6,901 nt of DNA from IMG/VR virus record IMGVR_UViG_3300022758_000088, positions 1 to 6,901 of that record; one strand, written 5' to 3'. The notes beneath the pieces were generated by a model. It saw only the letters and a program-made list of their open reading frames with translations, made no database searches and was not told the DNA's origin. A program made the position numbers and the translations under genes. Numbering within the stretch: the first letter of the stretch is position 1; each line of letters opens with the position of its first letter. This document shows positions 1-6,901 of this stretch, in pieces. Origin of the DNA: a virus.

Positions 1-127
1 TTTGAAATGTAAGGGAAGAGACGTAAAACTATTAAGATATCCCGCAACGTACGACTCAGCCTGTCCTCGGGACGTAGAGCAATCGACACGTCCAAATTTC
101 CAACATGAATTAACAACTCGGATAAAA
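1..127. repeat. Terminal redundancy: 1-127 is identical to 6775-6901. This is a circular-contig overlap, not a biological repeat.
   Basis: Base-by-base comparison of the first 127 nt (tttgaaatgtaagggaagag...caactcggataaaa) with the last 127 nt gives an offset of exactly 6774. The VP4 reading frame continues without a stop across the implied junction (1 joined to 6774). From memory, 127 is the usual largest k of de Bruijn assemblers such as SPAdes. Confidence 0.97.
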
Positions 128-783
128 TTCTTGGCGAGTTTGTCGGAGTCAAAGAAAAATAAGATATGGAAATGCGGGCGGAAAGAGATGGGTCCGTACT
201 CTCCCACAATGTATGTATGTAACTTTTCATTTTCGGGATTTAAATCACGTAAGAGGATTTGCTTACGTACACGTTTCATAAACAAGGAAAGGTCCTTATG
301 GCAAAGAAAACCATAACGACCGGCATATTGAGGGTATTTACCTTTAAAGGATAAATCTGCCTGACGAGAATAACGATTCCAATACTCTTTCTTACAGGAA
401 AAATCAAACTCAAACTGCTGATCCATAGCTAAGCCGAGAACAGGCCGCACATGCTTAACACCATGAAAAATGATAGTACGAGTAAGCCTACGACGAGGAT
501 AAACAAAAGCATGCACAGCAATATTATCTTCGTCGATCTCGTGAGTTTCAACTTCATAATAAGGGATAAACTCATTCTTATAAGTGAGACTAACAAAATA
601 ACAATATTTTGAAACAGACTTTTGAGCATAAATACGATTTTCAGAAAGAATGGATTTAGAAACTCTGCAAGCATCACAGACACCACAGGGAACGAGAATA
701 ATATCACCTGTATAAGGATTAATGACTTCACGTTTGTTCTGACACTCCGTGTAAAATTTATTAACGAACTCTGCAGTATCCAT
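1..783 (-). CDS. VP4: Replication initiator protein VP4 (HUH rolling-circle endonuclease), N-terminal 261 codons. It continues at 6774 on the circle.
   Basis: Hand translation of the minus strand from ATG 783..781 gives MDTAEFVNKFYTECQNKREVINPYTGDIILVPCGVCDACRVSK...YCYFVSLTYKNE...GEYGPISFRPHFHILFFFDS...RGQAESYVAGYLNSFTSLPLHFK. I checked all 261 triplets and found no stop. The sequence has a CxxCxxC cluster, RCR motif 1 (FVSLTY), the HUH motif (HFH in RPHFHILFF) and a Tyr motif (SYVAGYL). This frame is absent from the supplied ORF track because it runs off the window edge. Confidence 0.9.
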   Translation of the reverse strand, partial: MDTAEFVNKFYTECQNKREVINPYTGDIILVPCGVCDACRVSKSILSENRIYAQKSVSKYCYFVSLTYKNEFIPYYEVETHEIDEDNIAVHAFVYPRRRLTRTIIFHGVKHVRPVLGLAMDQQFEFDFSCKKEYWNRYSRQADLSFKGKYPQYAGRYGFLCHKDLSLFMKRVRKQILLRDLNPENEKLHTYIVGEYGPISFRPHFHILFFFDSDKLAKNFIRVVNSCWKFGRVDCSTSRGQAESYVAGYLNSFTSLPLHFK

Positions 784-794
784 GATGTAAAAAC

Positions 795-989
795 CTAGTC
801 TTTATCGTTTAACAAAAGATAGAGATTTTCCTCGGGGAAGGAATCAAATACAAGAACGTTACCGGAACTAGGTTTTAAATTTTCATGCAGAAAGTGAAGT
901 AATTCACCTTCTTCAACAACGTAAATAACAGGCTCCTGAGGGCGCTGAGGATCGTTGGATTTCGAATGTTTAGCTACTTTAAATAACAT
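795..989 (-). CDS. Hypothetical small protein (64 aa) immediately upstream of VP4
   Basis: The ORF is in the gene-strand orientation and its composition looks protein-like (MLFKVAKHSKSNDPQRPQEPVIYVVEEGELLHFLHENLKP...). It stops 11 nt before the VP4 ATG and fits the compact unidirectional layout. I recognise no homolog. Confidence 0.5.
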   Translation of the reverse strand: MLFKVAKHSKSNDPQRPQEPVIYVVEEGELLHFLHENLKPSSGNVLVFDSFPEENLYLLLNDKD

Positions 990-1090
990 ATTGTGAAGAA
1001 TTAATTACAATGCAATAATAAGACAAAATAAGGTAATAACAAAAAATAAGGTATGAAAAAATTTCATAGAAGGAATAATAAATAATAATA
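990..1090. other. Extremely AT-rich non-coding tract (hand count 18/100 G+C) with AAT/TAT-type short repeats
   Basis: Hand count of 991-1090 gives 18 G+C. Sequences such as aataataaataataata occur at 1074-1090. The tract lies directly next to the 53% GC hairpin island. Confidence 0.6.
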
Positions 1091-1490
1091 CCTCCGCTGT
1101 GACCTCGCGATACCGGCTCGCGAGTCGGACACTACGTGTCCTCCCGGGAATAGACTTTTGTCCATTTGCTCGCCTAGCTCGGTCACGCCAACGCACGATG
1201 GATTCTTCGAATCCAGTAGGATGGGGTGTCACTTTTGCATAGTAAGGACGAGAGAGTTGAATCGATGAAGGTAACATCGATTCCCTTCGGGCAAAAGTGT
1301 AGGCTTCACTAACGTAATGGATGTTTACGGGTCAGCTTCGCTGACGGCGTGGACCGTGGTTAACATAATGCAAGGGGAAGAGCGCCGCAAGAGCAAGACA
1401 CTATACTCAAGGGCGCTAGGATGTTTACCGGATTCCGAGACTCGCTACGCTCGCTCTCTCACTCGGTTAACGGTGCCTTCGGCAGTAGTT
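1091..1490 (-). other. GC-rich, hairpin-dense non-coding island. It could be a structured ssDNA origin or a structured RNA. Family unrecognised.
   Basis: Hand count gives 214/400 G+C (53.5%), against roughly 35-43% in spot-checked coding lines and 18% in the adjacent tract. All three minus-strand frames have stops between 1467 and about 1280. At least 10 local hairpins are present, many of them perfect palindromes, plus long-range complementarities (1230-1238/1291-1299, 1099-1104/1181-1186, 1250-1256/1454-1460). Confidence 0.65.
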
Positions 1491-1811
1491 TAATACGTCT
1501 TCTTTGAAGACGTATATATCAGCAGAAGGAATACACGGAAAGTCATCACCAACATGATAATAAGTAACTTCAACTTCAAGATCAGGAACAGATGAAAACA
1601 CAGTAGACAATATTCTACCAATGCGAAGAGATATACAATCAAACACAACAATTCCAAGCATCTCATCAAAGACTCCGGCAGAAGAAGAGCGAAGGGTCAA
1701 ACGAATATATTTAGGTTCAATATAACCAATGGTAGATACACGATGTTCTTCCCATATAGAAACTATTCCTTCCAGTGTACCAAAAACAACAAGTAAATTT
1801 TCTTTAGTCAT
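1467..1811 (-). CDS. Hypothetical protein (114 aa from ATG 1811; an alternative upstream start at 1841 gives 124 aa)
   Basis: Track ORF 1467..1841. The internal start MTKENLLVVFGTLEG... lies 11 nt after the ORF91 stop, which fits the compact layout. The sequence looks protein-like and I recognise no homolog. Its last ~25 codons overlap hairpins at the edge of the GC island. Confidence 0.55.
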   Translation of the reverse strand: MTKENLLVVFGTLEGIVSIWEEHRVSTIGYIEPKYIRLTLRSSSAGVFDEMLGIVVFDCISLRIGRILSTVFSSVPDLEVEVTYYHVGDDFPCIPSADIYVFKEDVLNYCRRHR

Positions 1812-1822
1812 AGCAGCAAGCT

Positions 1823-2098
1823 TTAAAAGTAAACATAACAAGATCCATAGTCAAGATGAAAGGGACGAAAAAGAGCAGGCTGAGATTCAACAGCAAACCG
1901 ACGATGAAAACGAACAGGATCACCGGGGAATAATTTGCGAAGAGAATTAAGCGTAGAACGAGTATCATTAAAACTAAAATCGTAAATAGGGTATAAATGA
2001 CCCTCTCTAATAACAGTAAACACTGCACAGTCCATAAAAACAGAATAAATAGTCTGTGCCTTCTCTAAATCGGTTTTAAATAACTTAATGCGTTTCAT
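1823..2098 (-). CDS. Hypothetical protein (91 aa), first gene after the predicted promoter
   Basis: Track ORF MKRIKLFKTDLEKAQTIYSVFMDCAVFTVIREGHLYPIYDF... The ATG at 2098 lies about 24 nt downstream of a TAccTTTG -7 box. I recognise no homolog. Confidence 0.5.
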   Translation of the reverse strand: MKRIKLFKTDLEKAQTIYSVFMDCAVFTVIREGHLYPIYDFSFNDTRSTLNSLRKLFPGDPVRFHRRFAVESQPALFRPFHLDYGSCYVYF

Positions 2099-2121
2099 AT
2101 CCTTTGTTTTTGATTACATTA

Positions 2122-2152
2122 CAAAGGTAGCATTTTATTATGAAATAACAAA
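2122..2152 (-). promoter_or_regulatory. Bacteroidota-type promoter: -33 TTTG (2152..2149), 19-nt spacer, -7 TAccTTTG (2129..2122)
   Basis: The minus strand reads TTTG-ttatttcataataaaatgc-TACCTTTG. This is an exact match to the Bacteroides sigma-ABfr consensus as I remember it (TTTG / TAnnTTTG, spacing about 19-21). It sits in one of only two non-coding regions, 23 nt upstream of the ORF91 ATG. Confidence 0.55.
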
Positions 2153-2157
2153 TAATA

Positions 2158-2175
2158 TAATGCTAAATAGCATTA
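2158..2175. repeat. 18-bp dyad symmetry TAATGCTA-AA-TAGCATTA between the terminator and the -33 box
   Basis: Read directly: 8-nt arms are perfectly complementary around a 2-nt centre. Its position just upstream of the -33 element suggests an operator or protein-binding site, or a second weak hairpin. Confidence 0.4.
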
Positions 2176-2189
2176 AATAATGTTAATAA

Positions 2190-2216
2190 ATTCTTCCGGC
2201 TATAAACCGGAAGAAT
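2190..2216 (-). terminator. Intrinsic-terminator-like hairpin directly after the VP2 stop
   Basis: The minus strand reads TGA-ttt-ATTCTTCCGG-tttatag-CCGGAAGAAT-ttattaacattattt. This is a 10-bp perfect stem with a 7-nt loop and a U-rich (not pure U) tail, starting 3 nt after the VP2 TGA. Confidence 0.5.
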
Positions 2217-2219
2217 AAA

Positions 2220-3419
2220 TCACTTTTTCTTAAGAGCAGCAGTACCAATACCGGAAACAGTATTTAAAAAGAAATCTCTCCAAATCTGTTGAGCACGGTA
2301 ATACTTCTTACGATTAAGCATAGAATGACCTTCACGAGACCAAAGCAATTCCTGCATCTGTTTTTCAAGGCGAGAAATCTGAGACTGATAGATATCCATA
2401 TTACCTCTACCAGTAGCAACAGCACCGGCAAGAGATTTATACGAACGATAATAAGCAGCATTAGACTGATACTCTTCTTTCATTGCGCGTACAAAGAAAT
2501 CAGAAAGTTCAGCGGACTGTTTATTACTTATACGAATACCGGCAGTACGGGCAATAGATTCATTATATTCTGCCAATCGATTTTTAATCGATGCCAAAGA
2601 CAATTGTCCTTGAGCATATTGAGCAAAAAGTGATGCAGCATGAGAATAGATCTGAACCTGCTGTTGAGCAGGAAGATACTTATTCATAATTTCCTGGCCT
2701 TTACCTTGCAATTTAGTCAGAAGAGCCTGAGCAGCTGTAAGCTCAGTATGAGTGCGAACAGCTTCATACTCCTGACGAATCATATTTATACCAGTAATAG
2801 CCATCTCAGGAGCCATGGCACGACGAATATTCCAATAGGCAGGATCAAGACTCTCAACTTCTCCATTAATATTGGAAAGTATCTGAGATTTACGAAAATC
2901 TGATCCAAACTGCATATCAAAAGCATTCGCAATATCCTGACCTTTTGCCTGATTGGCTAAAAGTTGATTACTGTAATAAGAATTAATAGCATCTCCAACA
3001 CTATTAAAACTCATCTGAAATGTCTCCGGGACCTGATTAGGCATCTGAGCAGTAGGATTACCTACTCCGGAAACACCGGAGGAGGTAACACCAACACCTG
3101 CAGAATTGCCATCAAGTCCATTCATATAAGGATTATATCCGGCCTCTTCAAGGCGGGCGCGTTGCGCAGCCGGAGAATTATACTCGTTTTCACGATTCCA
3201 TTGTTCCAAAGTCCACTGGTTTTGGGCATTACGTTCAGAAGTTTGCCACTCGCGATTAATGGCTGCCTGCTGAGCATTCCATTCATTATTCATCTGAGCG
3301 ATTTCCTTCTGACCTTTATTATAAGCCTTGGCGGCACGTTTAGACATGCCGCCGGAAATACCAGAACCTAGAAGTCCGGAAATACCTGAAACAATAGCGC
3401 TACCAACAAGCGGACCCAT
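2220..3419 (-). CDS. VP2: Minor capsid / DNA pilot protein VP2 (399 aa)
   Basis: The N-terminus is Gly/Ser-rich (MGPLVGSAIVSGISGLLGSGISGG). It is followed by a Q/N/W-rich segment ...NREWQTSERNAQNQWTLEQWNRENEYNSPAAQRARLEEAGYNPYM, which I recognise as typical of microvirus VP2. Size and position downstream of VP1 fit. The start overlaps the upstream stop (TAATG). Confidence 0.85.
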   Translation of the reverse strand: MGPLVGSAIVSGISGLLGSGISGGMSKRAAKAYNKGQKEIAQMNNEWNAQQAAINREWQTSERNAQNQWTLEQWNRENEYNSPAAQRARLEEAGYNPYMNGLDGNSAGVGVTSSGVSGVGNPTAQMPNQVPETFQMSFNSVGDAINSYYSNQLLANQAKGQDIANAFDMQFGSDFRKSQILSNINGEVESLDPAYWNIRRAMAPEMAITGINMIRQEYEAVRTHTELTAAQALLTKLQGKGQEIMNKYLPAQQQVQIYSHAASLFAQYAQGQLSLASIKNRLAEYNESIARTAGIRISNKQSAELSDFFVRAMKEEYQSNAAYYRSYKSLAGAVATGRGNMDIYQSQISRLEKQMQELLWSREGHSMLNRKKYYRAQQIWRDFFLNTVSGIGTAALKKK

Positions 3420-3832
3420 TACTCAGTAGACTGAACAGGTTCAGAATCAACCTTAGGCTGGGAAGCAATAGCGGCTTCTTTAACCTCAGCAACCATATCC
3501 TGATATTTCTGATCAAGGCTAGCCATCCAAGCATCAACTTCAGCCGGAGACTGAAGATAACGAGATTTTAATGTCTCAATCAGAGCATCATCATCAAGTT
3601 TCTGCTTATACGGGGACCGGGAAGGCTGAATAGAGCGAACAATATTCAAATAATTTTCCTCACCAATCTGATTACGAATGCGTTCTGCATTCATAAGAAG
3701 ATTGACATCAGAATTCATATGAATACAACCATCTTCATCGGTATAAAACCGAAGAGATTCAATCGGTTGTACAACAACGGCAATAGCCGAAGACAAACCA
3801 GCAACAATATACTTATCACTCATAATGAACAT
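3419..3832 (-). CDS. Hypothetical protein (137 aa) between VP1 and VP2. It may be a scaffolding-type protein, judged by position only.
   Basis: The ORF is tightly packed, starting 2 nt after the VP1 stop and overlapping the VP2 ATG by 1 nt. The sequence looks protein-like with an acidic C-terminus. No motif recognised, so the functional guess is purely positional. An alternative start is ATG 3823. Confidence 0.6.
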   Translation of the reverse strand: MFIMSDKYIVAGLSSAIAVVVQPIESLRFYTDEDGCIHMNSDVNLLMNAERIRNQIGEENYLNIVRSIQPSRSPYKQKLDDDALIETLKSRYLQSPAEVDAWMASLDQKYQDMVAEVKEAAIASQPKVDSEPVQSTE

Positions 3833-3834
3833 CT

Positions 3835-5736
3835 TTAATAAGGCATACCATCATAGTCGAAGTTCCGGACAGCCTTAACATCCAGATACAACGAAGACAA
3901 AAACTGATCAGTATCCATCGAACTGTCAGCAGCAACTTTAAAGATACTGTCCAAAACGGACGGATTTACTTTAAAGAAACCATAATTCAGCGAATACGTA
4001 GGAAGAGACTCACCGGGGGAAATAGTAGAAGTCACCCATTTAGAAAGATACTCAGGATCAAGCGGAGCAACCCAGGACTTCAAAGTAGAACGGAAAGCTC
4101 CGTACACTTCGTCATAGTCGGTCTTTAAATCAATAAATCGAGGGGTGTAACCCATAACCGATCCGGTAGGATCAGAAGCAAATGTATCAGACTTGTAATT
4201 AAAGAACCTACCAAAATGAAGCGACTGCATACCAATAGAATCAAATTCCGGGAAGGGAAGATCGGCAGTATTGGTATATAAAAGCTCCTGAGGCTGGCCG
4301 GTAATCACATAATCCAAAAGAGGAACCACATGGTAAATAGCCATCAGAATACCATATTCATCAGAAGAGAAATTTACTCCTCCTTGGCCGGAACCAACAC
4401 CTTTACCTTTAATAATAGCAGAGGCATTTTGTTCGGCTTCAGGAAGATAAGTATTAACTACTTCTGAAATATCAATATTGGAGGCGGATCCTCCAACACG
4501 GAAGCAAGTGTCAGAAAGAGCCGGAGACAAAGTCACACCAAAATGAGCATAAATCTGATCACGGGCAGTCTGATCAGCAACCTGAGAAACCTCGCGATAG
4601 CGCTGAACGGTTTCAGCCATACGAAGCTGGAGAACGGTAAACGAGGCCTGAAGAGAAGGATTAGAAATAATAGTCTTAAGAATAGCGCTATCAGGCTGAC
4701 GAGTGGGCATCAAATTGTATTCACCAGTACTAGAACCAGTAACCTTATTCATAGCAATCTGGCCAGTAATGTCAACATCTCCAGTAGCAGATACGCCGAC
4801 AACATTTCCAATAAGGTTTGAAGGAGTCGCAGAACTGGGTATAACATCCACAACAGAAACATCGCCTAACTGGGAATTAGGCATAACTCCCATAAAAAGG
4901 TCTTTCGGCCAGTTGGCATAACGAAGAGTAAAAAGATTGTTACCTGTTATATATTCCTTTAAAGCAGCTAAATCAGAAGTAAAAGAATTAAAAATATTAC
5001 CTCCGGAATACCAATCAAAATTATAGGTATAAGGTTCATTTTGTTCCCATTGAGAAATCCTGAAATGATCTGCATAAATTTTCTGATAAGCAGCAAAAGG
5101 CAAAACATTAACAGAATAGTGAGTATTAATTCCCTGAAGAGAAAAATCAGGAGACTCAGACAAACCTAAACTAAGATAACCAGCACCAGCAGGAGGAGTA
5201 TATTCAGCAGGAAAAAAATTACCATAACGAAGCATCATAGCAAGCTTAGCACCACAAGTACCCGCGTTAAATCCAAAGAAATTTACAACAGGACTAATAC
5301 CAGCAGATGCATTACCATAATACATATCCCAAAGAACAAGCCAAAGATTATAACCTAAACCAGCGGAATGTGCACCAAGAACAGTATAGGGAATATCATT
5401 AGTGACGATCTTGTTTGTACCAATTCCAGATGCCTGGACAGGATTATTCTGCATATTCATAAGAGCCTGAGGAAGGTTCTTATTAATAAGACGCAACGGT
5501 ACAAAATACCAGTCCAAATACTCACGGATACGGGTATACGCAGCTGTATTCACAGGCTGTGTACGGGTAAACAACTGATGACGAATATTGAATTTGTCAC
5601 CGGGATAAACCAGTTTGTAATAAACTGGCAACAGTTCACCAGCCTTACTAGTGAAACAGATACGACGAGAAAGATCGAAACCGGACCTGTGAGGATGATT
5701 CCGAACATCTCCATAAGAAAATAAATTTGAAGCCAT
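3835..5736 (-). CDS. VP1: Major capsid protein VP1 (633 aa), Microviridae F-like
   Basis: The N-terminus is MASNLFSYGDVRNHPHRSGFDLSRRICFTSKAGELLPVYYKLVYPGDKFNI...FTRTQPVNTAAYTRIREYLDWYFVPLRL. This matches the conserved start of Alpavirinae-type microvirus capsid proteins as I remember them. It is the longest ORF and is uninterrupted. Confidence 0.95.
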   Translation of the reverse strand: MASNLFSYGDVRNHPHRSGFDLSRRICFTSKAGELLPVYYKLVYPGDKFNIRHQLFTRTQPVNTAAYTRIREYLDWYFVPLRLINKNLPQALMNMQNNPVQASGIGTNKIVTNDIPYTVLGAHSAGLGYNLWLVLWDMYYGNASAGISPVVNFFGFNAGTCGAKLAMMLRYGNFFPAEYTPPAGAGYLSLGLSESPDFSLQGINTHYSVNVLPFAAYQKIYADHFRISQWEQNEPYTYNFDWYSGGNIFNSFTSDLAALKEYITGNNLFTLRYANWPKDLFMGVMPNSQLGDVSVVDVIPSSATPSNLIGNVVGVSATGDVDITGQIAMNKVTGSSTGEYNLMPTRQPDSAILKTIISNPSLQASFTVLQLRMAETVQRYREVSQVADQTARDQIYAHFGVTLSPALSDTCFRVGGSASNIDISEVVNTYLPEAEQNASAIIKGKGVGSGQGGVNFSSDEYGILMAIYHVVPLLDYVITGQPQELLYTNTADLPFPEFDSIGMQSLHFGRFFNYKSDTFASDPTGSVMGYTPRFIDLKTDYDEVYGAFRSTLKSWVAPLDPEYLSKWVTSTISPGESLPTYSLNYGFFKVNPSVLDSIFKVAADSSMDTDQFLSSLYLDVKAVRNFDYDGMPY

Positions 5737-5741
5737 AAAAT

Positions 5742-5963
5742 TTAAGTTTCGCGATAATAGATATCGCCTAAATTAACAACTGAATAAAAGGATTCTGCAT
5801 AATGAAAATCCGAAAGGATCTGATTCAGTTTCGCAACCTTATGAGAAAACTCCGTAAAAGATCGAGCATTCAAATAAATCTCAGTCACAAGATAAAACTG
5901 ATTGTCTTCGAGCATATTGGAAGACTGATACAAATACGCTTTGTAAGGACGACGACTAGACAT
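5742..5963 (-). CDS. Hypothetical small protein (73 aa) between VP4 and VP1
   Basis: Its ATG (5963..5961) overlaps the VP4 stop in the arrangement ATGTCTAG (8-nt overlap), and it ends 5 nt before the VP1 ATG. The N-terminus is mildly basic (MSSRRPYKAY). No homolog recognised. Confidence 0.55.
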   Translation of the reverse strand: MSSRRPYKAYLYQSSNMLEDNQFYLVTEIYLNARSFTEFSHKVAKLNQILSDFHYAESFYSVVNLGDIYYRET

Positions 5964-6901
5964 TATAATTGGCTCTCTCCGTAAAGAAATTATTCATATC
6001 ATTAAGATGACGATGTTTCACCTTCGAATGCACAAGAGCAGAAAGTTTCGTACGACAAACAGAACCTAATCCGGATTCTGCGAATTCTCTTTGTCTTTCT
6101 TCGGTCTGATTCCAAAAAATATCCGACCAATCGCTCTCAAAAGCCTGAGAATCTGAAAAAAGATCGTGGAGGCTTTGTTTTTCTCTAACATCAAAAAATT
6201 CTTTAGATAACTTAATAGCGGAATAAATCCTATCATAATCTACTCGCGGAGAGAAAAGAGAGAATCCCATCGAAGACAAGAATCTCTCACAATGACGGAA
6301 AAATATGTAAAAACGACTGCAAAAAGATCGCTCAAAAAATTCATCACCAAGAGCACCTCGGGTAGGATCAATATGAAGAAACTGCATAATATCGATCATA
6401 ACAGAATCTCCAGAAAGCTCTTTCACTGTCTCGCTCTGTCTGTCAGACGCGTAGTAATGCTGATAGATGAGCCGGGGGATACAGAAGAGGGAGGATTTCC
6501 AGTAGGCTGGCCGCTGGCAGATATTCCGAGCATGTCGTAATACCTCAACATATTCAGATACAGTACGACGGCCGTGTGCGACGGGTCGAAAAAAGCAGGT
6601 ATCGATAATCGAGCTCCATGGCCGAATAACTCTATATTTGCCATTGACCGGCACGCTGACTCCATCAAGGAGCTTAGAAAAATTTCCCTTCCTACCTTCT
6701 TCAATGGAAGGCGAAAAGAACTGAAATCCAAAGTGGTTAGAGAATCGTGCAAAAGGACGAATGCAGCGATTTTCTTTGAAATGTAAGGGAAGAGACGTAA
6801 AACTATTAAGATATCCCGCAACGTACGACTCAGCCTGTCCTCGGGACGTAGAGCAATCGACACGTCCAAATTTCCAACATGAATTAACAACTCGGATAAA
6901 A
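5956..6901 (-). CDS. VP4: Replication initiator protein VP4, C-terminal part. The 6775-6901 portion duplicates codons already counted in 1-127. The full gene is 783..1 plus 6774..5956, giving 533 aa.
   Basis: The frame is open from the junction (…LHFK|ENRCIRPFARFSNHFGFQFFSPSIEEGRKGNFSKLLDGVS) into the 232-aa track ORF 5956..6654. The M at the start of that track ORF is really an internal GTG (Val) codon. 6774-5956+1 = 819 nt, or 273 codons including the TAG at 5958..5956. Confidence 0.88.
   Translation of the reverse strand, partial: FIRVVNSCWKFGRVDCSTSRGQAESYVAGYLNSFTSLPLHFKENRCIRPFARFSNHFGFQFFSPSIEEGRKGNFSKLLDGVSVPVNGKYRVIRPWSSIIDTCFFRPVAHGRRTVSEYVEVLRHARNICQRPAYWKSSLFCIPRLIYQHYYASDRQSETVKELSGDSVMIDIMQFLHIDPTRGALGDEFFERSFCSRFYIFFRHCERFLSSMGFSLFSPRVDYDRIYSAIKLSKEFFDVREKQSLHDLFSDSQAFESDWSDIFWNQTEERQREFAESGLGSVCRTKLSALVHSKVKHRHLNDMNNFFTERANYNV
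6775..6901. repeat. Second copy of the terminal redundancy (duplicate of 1-127)
   Basis: Identical to 1-127, as described for the first copy. Confidence 0.97.

Follow-up and report, generated by a model that had tools for sequence, protein, structure and literature searches.

Among the signals described for starting a complementary strand on single-stranded DNA (ssDNA), the origin of phage G4 is about 140 nt long and contains three hairpins. The single-strand origins (sso) of rolling-circle plasmids (ssoA, ssoT, ssoU and ssoW) and the minus-strand origin of M13/f1 are structured, non-coding, strand-specific and host-dependent sequences of 150-300 nt that recruit the host RNA polymerase to ssDNA, and sso signals are modular and exchangeable between replicons. 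Microviruses outside the phiX174/G4 group are among the most abundant phages of the human gut. Here we describe a structured non-coding element in IMG/VR virus record IMGVR_UViG_3300022758_000088, of which positions 1 to 6,901 constitute the whole stretch of DNA analysed (the window). The element, located around positions 1091-1490 on the minus strand, is a real, selected and conserved multi-helix structure with a modular layout, a constant genomic position and strand, and a DNA-type loop signature. It probably works as folded ssDNA. That it is, further, the complementary-strand origin or a priming signal of the ssDNA stage is the best of the readings considered, at about even odds.

The G4, St-1, alpha3 and phiK origins of the Bullavirinae resemble the element in being non-coding and intergenic, in lying on the packaged microvirus strand, in containing stable hairpins including the GCGNNAGC/GCGNAGC type, and in having been proposed to remain free of single-stranded DNA-binding protein (SSB) with a single-stranded start site 3' of a hairpin (PMC13037366). 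The element, likewise intergenic and on the packaged strand, has its own GCGN(N)AGC hairpin, the GCGAAGC within 1331-1345. However, it is 260-620 nt long and contains long-range helices, junctions, an insertion hot-spot and optional domains; its host probably belongs to the Bacteroidota. No homology to the G4/St-1/alpha3 origin was detected, blastn against 50,697 phage records having returned no Bullavirinae. The sso and M13 origins are similarly strand-specific, highly structured, non-coding and modular. The hallmarks of the ssoA type are RSB and the CS-6 loop motif TAGCGT/A, whereas the TAGCGA found in GCGTAGCGAG of the element (~1440-1449) belongs to a C-GTA-G hairpin and not to a terminal loop, making it an unconvincing match. 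Moreover, the folded promoter-like -33/-7 arrangement is not demonstrable in the element, and the element has no plasmid homolog.

Folded ssDNA read by primase or RNA polymerase is also known from RSF1010 ssiA/ssiB and the F-plasmid Frpo/ssi. The CCGAAGG mini-hairpin of RSF1010 ssiA is identical to ones in the element (PMC13037366), but ssiA comprises 40 nt and is read by the plasmid-encoded primase RepB', while the present genome has no recognisable primase. GEBRO, ARRPOF and PAGEV (Weinberg et al., 2017) are G+C-enriched structures of 223-349 nt beside the origins of ssDNA-generating replicons, for which the authors suggested a possible action as ssDNA (PMC5737381); they reside on plasmids of other phyla, and the window has no Rfam match at E <= 1. 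Reekeekee- and roodoodooviruses carry conserved intergenic DNA hairpins with compensatory changes, tentatively tied to negative-strand initiation (PMC9865509). Theirs are one or two hairpins of 13-64 nt, whereas the element is multi-domain, 5-10 times larger and has a distinct loop signature. The size, modularity and loop signature of the element are unusual.

The window consists of a circular microvirus genome of 6774 nt and a 127-nt terminal redundancy (positions 1-127 are repeated exactly at 6775-6901, and the Rep open reading frame (ORF) spans the junction). The element occupies the sole large intergenic region of this genome. A first-pass annotation, made from the sequence of the window without database searches, had described a G+C-rich, hairpin-dense island here, 53.5% G+C beside an 18% tract. 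We reproduced these figures: the G+C content is 53.5% in 1091-1490, 17.8% in 990-1090 and 39.5% in the rest of the genome. Folding of the 436-nt block with RNA parameters yielded z-scores against shuffled sequences of -4.75 for the minus strand and -2.98 for the plus strand; with DNA parameters, the values were -4.38 and -3.72, and the capsid gene, used as a coding control, gave -0.56. On the gene-sense strand, the block folds far better than its shuffled controls. As the annotation had stated, there is no convincing ORF in 990-1466: only short ORFs were found, none of which matches Pfam or PHROGs. Homologs vary by insertions and deletions of 1, 2, 17 and ~70-225 nt, which are not multiples of three, and by the gain or loss of entire hairpins, and no conserved reading frame was found among them. 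We rejected a degraded or frameshifted coding gene on the basis of this indel pattern, the stem-paired substitutions and the lack of a family match for any ORF of the region.

The architecture of the element is modular, comprising a 5' domain with two CCGTAAACATCC motifs, each located directly 3' of a hairpin, an insertion hot-spot, a widely conserved 3' module and an optional 3' extension. In window coordinates, and in the 5' to 3' order of the minus strand, the parts of the element and its downstream flank are as follows.

1493-1515, minus strand: hairpin at the terminator position, 10 bp with an AAA loop, right after the stop codon of a 124-amino-acid (aa) ORF; no T-run here.
1474-1484, minus strand: hairpin H1, TGCC-GAA-GGCA; the loop is GAA, GCA or GTA among homologs, and the stem covaries, with three of five pairs doubly changed.
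1419-1469, minus strand: 5' junction domain, in which an ACCG/CGGT helix (ACGC/GCGT elsewhere) encloses the conserved GAGTGAGAG box, a GAG/CTC helix (GCG/CGC elsewhere) and a C-GTA-G-capped hairpin.
1419-1431, minus strand: motif 1, CCGGTAAACATCC, conserved, at the 3' end of the 5' junction domain.
1381-1417, minus strand: H5 domain, AGCGCC...GGCGCT with an inner GAG/CTC extension.
1351-1380, minus strand: pyrimidine-rich, poorly conserved linker, with an isolated XerD-arm-like 9-mer, TTATGTTAA, at 1360-1368.
1319-1350, minus strand, including motif 2: hairpin H6, GTCAGC-GAA-GCTGAC, containing the classical GCGAAGC (in 1331-1345) and closed by ACG/CGT.
1319-1331, minus strand: motif 2, CCCGTAAACATCC, conserved, after H6.
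1309-1318, minus strand: insertion hot-spot at the ATTACG/TTAG boundary, where homologs add 0, ~17, ~70, ~150 or ~225 nt of hairpins.
1303-1309, minus strand: 7-nt mini-hairpin GTGAAGC with a 2-bp stem, directly 5' of the 3' module.
1226-1299, minus strand: 3' module, the most widely conserved part, with a 9-bp stem CACTTTTGC/GCAAAAGTG followed by TGACAC; inside it are a hairpin CCC-GAA-GGG, a second hairpin (1259-1283) whose stem covaries throughout, and the pyrimidine tract 1239-1258, which is single-stranded.
1091-1225, minus strand: optional 3' extension, partly or wholly deleted in several lineages; its hairpins are TGGATTC-GAA-GAATCCA (1199-1215), ATGGAC-AAAA-GTCTAT (1150-1165), GGACAC-GTA-GTGTCC (1127-1141) and CTCGCGA...TCGCGAG (1104-1124).
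1182-1186 with 1099-1103, minus strand: long-range helix GTGAC/GTCAC, enclosing all hairpins of the 3' extension except 1199-1215.
1013-1090, minus strand: A/T-rich zone downstream of the element.
1051-1069, minus strand: conserved palindrome CTATGAAATTTTTTCATAC, between the element and the promoter-like motif; CTATAGAAATTATCTATAC or CTATGAAAATTATTCATAC in other lineages.
1013-1043, minus strand: promoter-like motif of the Bacteroidetes type, TTTG-N19-TATTATTG, upstream of a 64-aa ORF and Rep.

The comparative data support this fold. We scored covariation on curated helices, as an all-against-all comparison of alignment columns had its signal swamped by phylogenetic correlation. In the model-based alignment, standard pairs make up 97.2% of the pair cells and 17 pairs are changed on both sides; when the partners are slid by 1-3 columns as a control, 31-41% of the cells pair. 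Within the 3' extension, 96.5% of the cells are paired and four pairs are changed on both sides, including some where GTGAC/GTCAC becomes GTGCT/AGCAC and where GGACAC/GTGTCC becomes GGACCC/GGGTCC or GGACGC/GCGTCC. The 9-bp stem of the 3' module shows no variation in 65 distinct close sequences, whereas other helices drift. In distant relatives it covaries, appearing as CAGTTTTC/GAAAACTG, GAGTTTTC/GAAAACTC, CACTTATC/GATAAGTG and CACTTTTC/GAAAAGTG. The whole stem of the second hairpin in the 3' module is swapped between lineages (AATCGATG/CATCGATT, AATCAGG/CCTGATT, TTTCGAT/ATCGAAA and ATTTGTT/AACAAAT). At the nucleotide level the 3' module does not stand out as the best-conserved part of the genome, since segments of the capsid and Rep genes are similarly conserved.

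Most of the pairing scheme drawn in the first-pass annotation could be recovered, and helices show compensatory substitutions. The local helices 1104-1124, 1127-1141, 1199-1215, 1259-1283, 1331-1345, 1381-1417, 1474-1484 and 1493-1515 are all present, and the long-range pairings 1230-1238/1291-1299 and 1099-1104/1181-1186 are present and covary across relatives; the hairpin at 1313-1329 is conserved in part only. Its helix 1435-1439/1462-1466 found no comparative support, as the data favour the pairing of ACCG (~1464-1467) with CGGT (1428-1431), which is ACGC/GCGT elsewhere, together with the GAG/CTC helix that changes to GCG/CGC. As for the GAGAGAG/CTCTCTC pair, which had been suggested to form a pseudoknot, the purine run is invariant over its first five bases, and the sixth, the only one to vary, covaries as part of the local GAG/CTC helix. 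We also considered a pairing of GTAAACAT with ATGTTAAC (1360s) and rejected it because it is not conserved. With the covariation, the folding z-scores and the occurrence in ~75 microvirus-sized contigs and in diverged copies, the claim of a large conserved multi-helix structure holds.

In total, ~75 microvirus-sized contigs carry the element, as do six more diverged microviruses from GenBank and three regions of bacterial assemblies that resemble prophages. Blastn in distant mode against the 50,697 GenBank phage records returned seven close relatives only, namely Dulem viruses 265 and 266 (86% identity), bajarodmic viruses 1133, 502 and 273 (core only, 71-75%) and, with short matches of ~85 nt, Peromfec RodF7_5 and bajarodmic virus 1102; the region is largely unannotated in all seven. 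Searching with a first pattern, GTAAACATC...GTAAACATC, was too unspecific and gave mostly chance matches in large contigs, and we replaced it by a stem-spanning pattern. This pattern identified 21 IMG/VR and 46 metagenome contigs, many of them from the human gut; every one has the length of a microvirus genome or roughly double that. The same pattern had no match in 185,579 species represented by one genome each, and hence no integrated copy of the close family there; a plasmid search likewise gave no match to the element. A covariance model built from 11 copies produced 86 matches among the 84 sources searched. Six relatives picked because they seemingly lacked the element each have an unannotated gap of 390-1056 nt at the same position, with a diverged copy in it. 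Three contigs from bacterial assemblies, one of them a Prevotella metagenome-assembled genome (MAG), carry the element beside capsid genes that are 33-38% identical; two of the three, L183 and L186, are clearly integrated prophages. In the collections searched, the occurrence is thus restricted to microvirus-sized contigs and microvirus prophage-like regions. The position is also conserved, in the order pilot protein, element, small ORF and Rep. The element accounts for the long "empty" stretch that separates the pilot-protein gene from the Rep gene in the examined microvirus records, and it flags coding sequence (CDS) calls that enter this stretch. We found no description of the element in the literature.

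Several relatives differ in parts of the element. The hot-spot inserts are unrelated to one another: bajarodmic virus 502 (~1640-1790) has a very G+C-rich block of 150 nt with G5/C5 stems, and ~ten human-gut contigs share a 225-nt block with additional C-GAA-G hairpins. In Peromfec RodF7_5 (1760-2010) and bajarodmic virus 1102 (1800-2100), both on the minus strand, a different G+C-rich domain replaces the 5' domain; the two replacement domains share GGGGTATAGGGGGCTTTGCCCCCATAGCGTT and several GCGTAGC/GCGAAGC hairpins, and an A/T-rich spacer of ~180 nt precedes the 3' module. Two contigs of about twice the genome length, L117 (12,801 nt) and L164 (12,938 nt), carry two different element variants each, with and without the 225-nt insertion or with 72- and 75-nt modules. 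Each may be a heterodimer, a co-assembly or a recombinant of two related microviruses. At the position of the downstream palindrome, distant relatives have three direct repeats of TAAGTATAAATACCAC (L182, ~4190-4270) or the palindrome GGTGGTATTTATACCACC (L179, ~4470-4520). These palindromes and repeats between element and promoter look like operators or iterons.

The loops of the element point to DNA. When triloop hairpins with stems of 4 bp or more were counted over 42 distinct elements, the C-GNA-G type made up 151 of 199 on the sense strand and was absent from the antisense strand. Such hairpins reach a density of 9.3/kb in the elements versus 0.11/kb in the rest of the same genomes. The stem registers, read directly from the sequences, demand 3-nt loops, and therefore the antisense strand is not readable as UNCG tetraloops. 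None of the 63 tetraloops in the elements is GNRA or UNCG. The 7-mer 5' of the 3' module occurs as ATGAAAT, GTGAAGC, GCGAAGC, GTGAAAC, GCGTAGC, ACGAAGT and GCGGAGC, that is, as a covarying 2-bp stem with a GNA loop. G.T accounts for 1.8-3.8% of the helix pairs. Because G.T outnumbers A.C within the helices (50-109 vs 20), the functional strand is fixed as the sense strand. All genes lie on the minus strand of the window, so this functional strand is the window's minus strand; and since virions of microviruses package the mRNA-sense strand, it is also the packaged one.

According to a 2026 review, d(GCGNAGC) and d(GCGNNAGC) possess extraordinary stability as DNA, whereas r(GCGAAAGC) has a melting temperature of 39 °C (PMC13037366). 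GNA-type mini-hairpins bind SSB poorly and are known at the primase site of the G4/St-1/alpha3 complementary-strand origin, in RSF1010 ssiA (CCGAAGG) and in the N4 hairpin promoters (PMC13037366). The first-pass annotation had left the choice between a large structured RNA and a folded ssDNA element, and the latter is the better supported of the two, by the C-GNA-G loops on the packaged strand and, in several lineages, by the position between terminator and promoter. Loop chemistry, in the form of GNA triloops, 2-bp mini-hairpins and the absence of GNRA/UNCG, can help in this way to separate ssDNA from RNA in silico, a distinction earlier regarded as hard to draw.

The specific RNA readings of the annotation, a ribozyme, an intron or a non-coding RNA (ncRNA), are not supported, given the absence of an Rfam match, an interrupted gene and GNRA/UNCG loops, and the presence of DNA-type loops. 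Running cmscan over the whole window on both strands with 4227 Rfam 15 models gave no match at E <= 1; we take this set to include Intron_gpI, self-cleaving ribozymes, GOLLD/ROOL/HEARO and GEBRO/ARRPOF/PAGEV. ARAGORN reported no tRNA or tmRNA gene. With respect to group I/II introns, we saw no split gene, and the consensus structure lacks a catalytic core (P3-P7 with the G-binding site, or domain V). An intron splitting Rep, an idea raised by the two "replication initiator" CDSs of Dulem virus 265, was discarded because Rep is intact with 533 aa and no protein family supports the label of the 91-aa ORF. The evidence thus supports neither an intron nor a ribozyme.

How might a folded ssDNA of this kind act as a complementary-strand origin? 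Host SSB would coat the injected circle and presumably spare the cluster of very stable GNA-capped mini-hairpins. The SSB-free fold would make the 3' module and both CCGTAAACATCC motifs accessible to a host priming enzyme; either motif directly follows a hairpin on its 3' side, an arrangement shared with the start site of G4. Candidates for this enzyme are the primase used by G4, the RNA polymerase used by M13 and ssoA, and a PriA-type primosome like that of phiX174. A primer laid by that enzyme at a putative start site would then convert the ssDNA to the replicative form. Pfam and PHROG matching revealed no recognisable primase domain in Rep and no recognisable primase encoded elsewhere in the genome, so host priming would be needed. 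The element offers a concrete, conserved and mutable candidate, in which modules can be delimited, a single-stranded motif is present twice and one stem keeps an invariant sequence. A broader interpretation can be put forward only tentatively, namely that a natural ssDNA folds into several domains in the manner of a large structured RNA and serves gut Bacteroidota microviruses as a replication-initiation platform. Such a fold would combine three-way junctions and long-range helices with a periphery able to expand and with recognition modules of invariant sequence, and its complexity would far exceed that of any natural ssDNA structure described. If the element is instead transcribed and functional as RNA, it would represent a new large ncRNA class confined to ssDNA phages.

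In part of the family, the element lies between transcription units. A scan located a canonical terminator a few nt before the element in L003 (bajarodmic virus 502), and canonical terminators upstream of the element were also recognised by eye in L002, L005 (Peromfec RodF7_5) and L006 (bajarodmic virus 1102). No terminator was found 3' of the element in the relatives compared. Downstream of the element, TTTG-N19-20-TAnnTTTG (<=1 mismatch) occurs in 46 of 58 contexts and perfectly in 8, although this is a raw count from A/T-rich DNA, which lessens its value for the origin reading. The perfect versions, TTTG-N19/20-TATATTTG, are those of the bajarodmic viruses and L128. Together with the Prevotella prophage, the promoter type suggests from sequence that the hosts of this clade are Bacteroidota. 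The sigma-70 promoter/terminator scan was uninformative for this host type. A folded ssDNA promoter, with the invariant stem CACTTTTG serving as a Bacteroidetes -7 box, is not supported: the box has 7/8 matches and is lost in distant relatives.

Other observations also weigh against a complementary-strand origin. At 260-620 nt with multi-helix junctions, the element is several-fold above any characterised minus-strand origin of an ssDNA phage, and the need for so much structure has no explanation here. The 3' extension and the insertions are dispensable, and hence not all parts can be essential to an origin. In sequence, the element resembles no characterised origin. The window itself has, ahead of the element, a hairpin without a T-run in place of a canonical terminator, and the element may be co-transcribed with the upstream ORFs as their 3' untranslated region (UTR).

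The last point leads to the alternative of a structured RNA, which could stand alone as an ncRNA or form a structured untranslated region; in the latter case it might protect the two-ORF transcript against exonucleases as its 3' UTR, or regulate the Rep operon that follows. The structure does lie on the transcribed strand, RNA-parameter folding too prefers that strand (-4.75 against -2.98), variants compatible with G.U exceed A.C, nothing between the upstream ORF and the element in the window qualifies as a canonical terminator, and large modular layouts with variable peripheral domains are typical of RNAs. Moreover, sequence alone hardly tells ssDNA from RNA structures, and bioinformatics cannot cleanly part the two (PMC5737381). 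Nevertheless, we regard an RNA as unlikely. It would have to belong to no Rfam family at E <= 1, lack GNRA and UNCG among all 63 tetraloops, have a low G.U content and be built on GNA triloops and 2-bp mini-hairpins that are weak as RNA (PMC13037366). Terminators directly upstream, in bajarodmic viruses and by eye in Peromfec, leave few nt in which a promoter could fit, the element itself is followed by no terminator, the next promoter-like motif comes only after it, and in the collections searched the element was not found outside microvirus contigs and prophage-like regions.

A role in replication could also concern the viral strand, with the 3' module (1226-1299) being the viral-strand (plus) origin recognised and nicked by the rolling-circle Rep within the pyrimidine tract (consensus ...YCTTGTC...), the GNA-hairpin domains a separate minus-strand signal and the entire block a combined replication-control region. 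No other part of the element is as widely conserved as this module, which closely precedes the Rep operon; its stem is invariant in the 65 distinct close relatives, suggesting sequence-specific protein recognition, iteron-like repeats or palindromes follow it, and Rep is a PF23343/phrog_942 initiator. The tract may also be similar to the CTTG/ATA sequence around the nick in phiX174 and pC194-type origins. However, HUH nick sites are normally invariant, whereas the putative nick tract reads TCG, TTG, TGG, TAG, TAA, TTA or TCA at one place in the close family; a 9-bp A/T-rich stem around 55 nt with two hairpins is unlike known Rep origins, and in phiX-like phages the origin sits inside the Rep gene. 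We consider a plus origin improbable. Least probable is a role in lysogeny, as a folded ssDNA attachment site or an accessory for XerC/D integration at dif-like sites in the manner of CTXphi. Bacteroidetes microvirus proviruses have been proposed to integrate via dif-like sites upstream of Rep (PMC3091885), a dif-like att repeat lies only 40-57 nt downstream of the 3' module in prophages L183 and L186, and one XerD-arm-like 9-mer occurs within the window's element. This 9-mer, however, is located in a non-conserved linker, no integrated close-family copy was present in the 185,579 species genomes, and the att sites of the prophages fall beyond the element, of which an intact copy remains at the prophage end. 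A dif/Xer attP was likewise rejected in the window, where no 28-nt dif-like site, composed of XerC arm, 6-nt spacer and XerD arm, occurs within 3 mismatches of the consensus. Because the att of the prophages lies 40-57 nt downstream of an intact element and the window has no such site, the element is a neighbour of attP and not attP itself. The direct repeats flanking the prophages are at 5854-5875 and 12171-12192 in L186 (6317 nt apart) and at 6112-6143 and 11959-11990 in L183 (5847 nt apart).

These dif-like repeats (e.g., TTTATCTTAATGCGCATTATAT) define prophages of 6.3 and 5.8 kb, one in the Prevotella MAG and one in an unclassified bacterial assembly.

The genes around the element in the window are, in their order on the minus strand:

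Rep, minus strand, starting at ~783: 533 aa, PF23343 and phrog_942 initiator.
73-aa ORF, minus strand.
Major capsid protein, minus strand: phrog_514.
Scaffold protein, minus strand.
Pilot protein, minus strand.
A/T-rich gap with a hairpin.
Small ORFs of 91 aa and 124 aa, minus strand.
The element, minus strand, followed by the A/T-rich zone.
989-795, minus strand: 64-aa ORF, followed by Rep.

The hairpin in the A/T-rich gap after the pilot-protein gene, TTCTTCCGG...CCGGAAGAA followed by TTTATT (window 2190-2215), is a likely terminator and parts the structural genes from the two small ORFs. Two annotations in Dulem virus 265 appear doubtful. Its CDS 1954-2229, corresponding to the 91-aa ORF (window 1823-2098), is labelled "replication initiator protein" without Pfam or PHROG support, and its "hypothetical protein" CDS 1220-1573 enters the 3' extension of the element. 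In Dipodfec UOA04_Rod_446 (3511-4150) and bajarodmic virus 1121 (3560-4200), an unannotated gap upstream of the element seems, by eye, to contain two similar ORFs. They would encode ~90 aa on the strand opposite to all other genes, and on the sense strand these stretches end in ...TTTTTCCAT or ...TTTTTCAT. Such antisense genes would be unusual in a microvirus.

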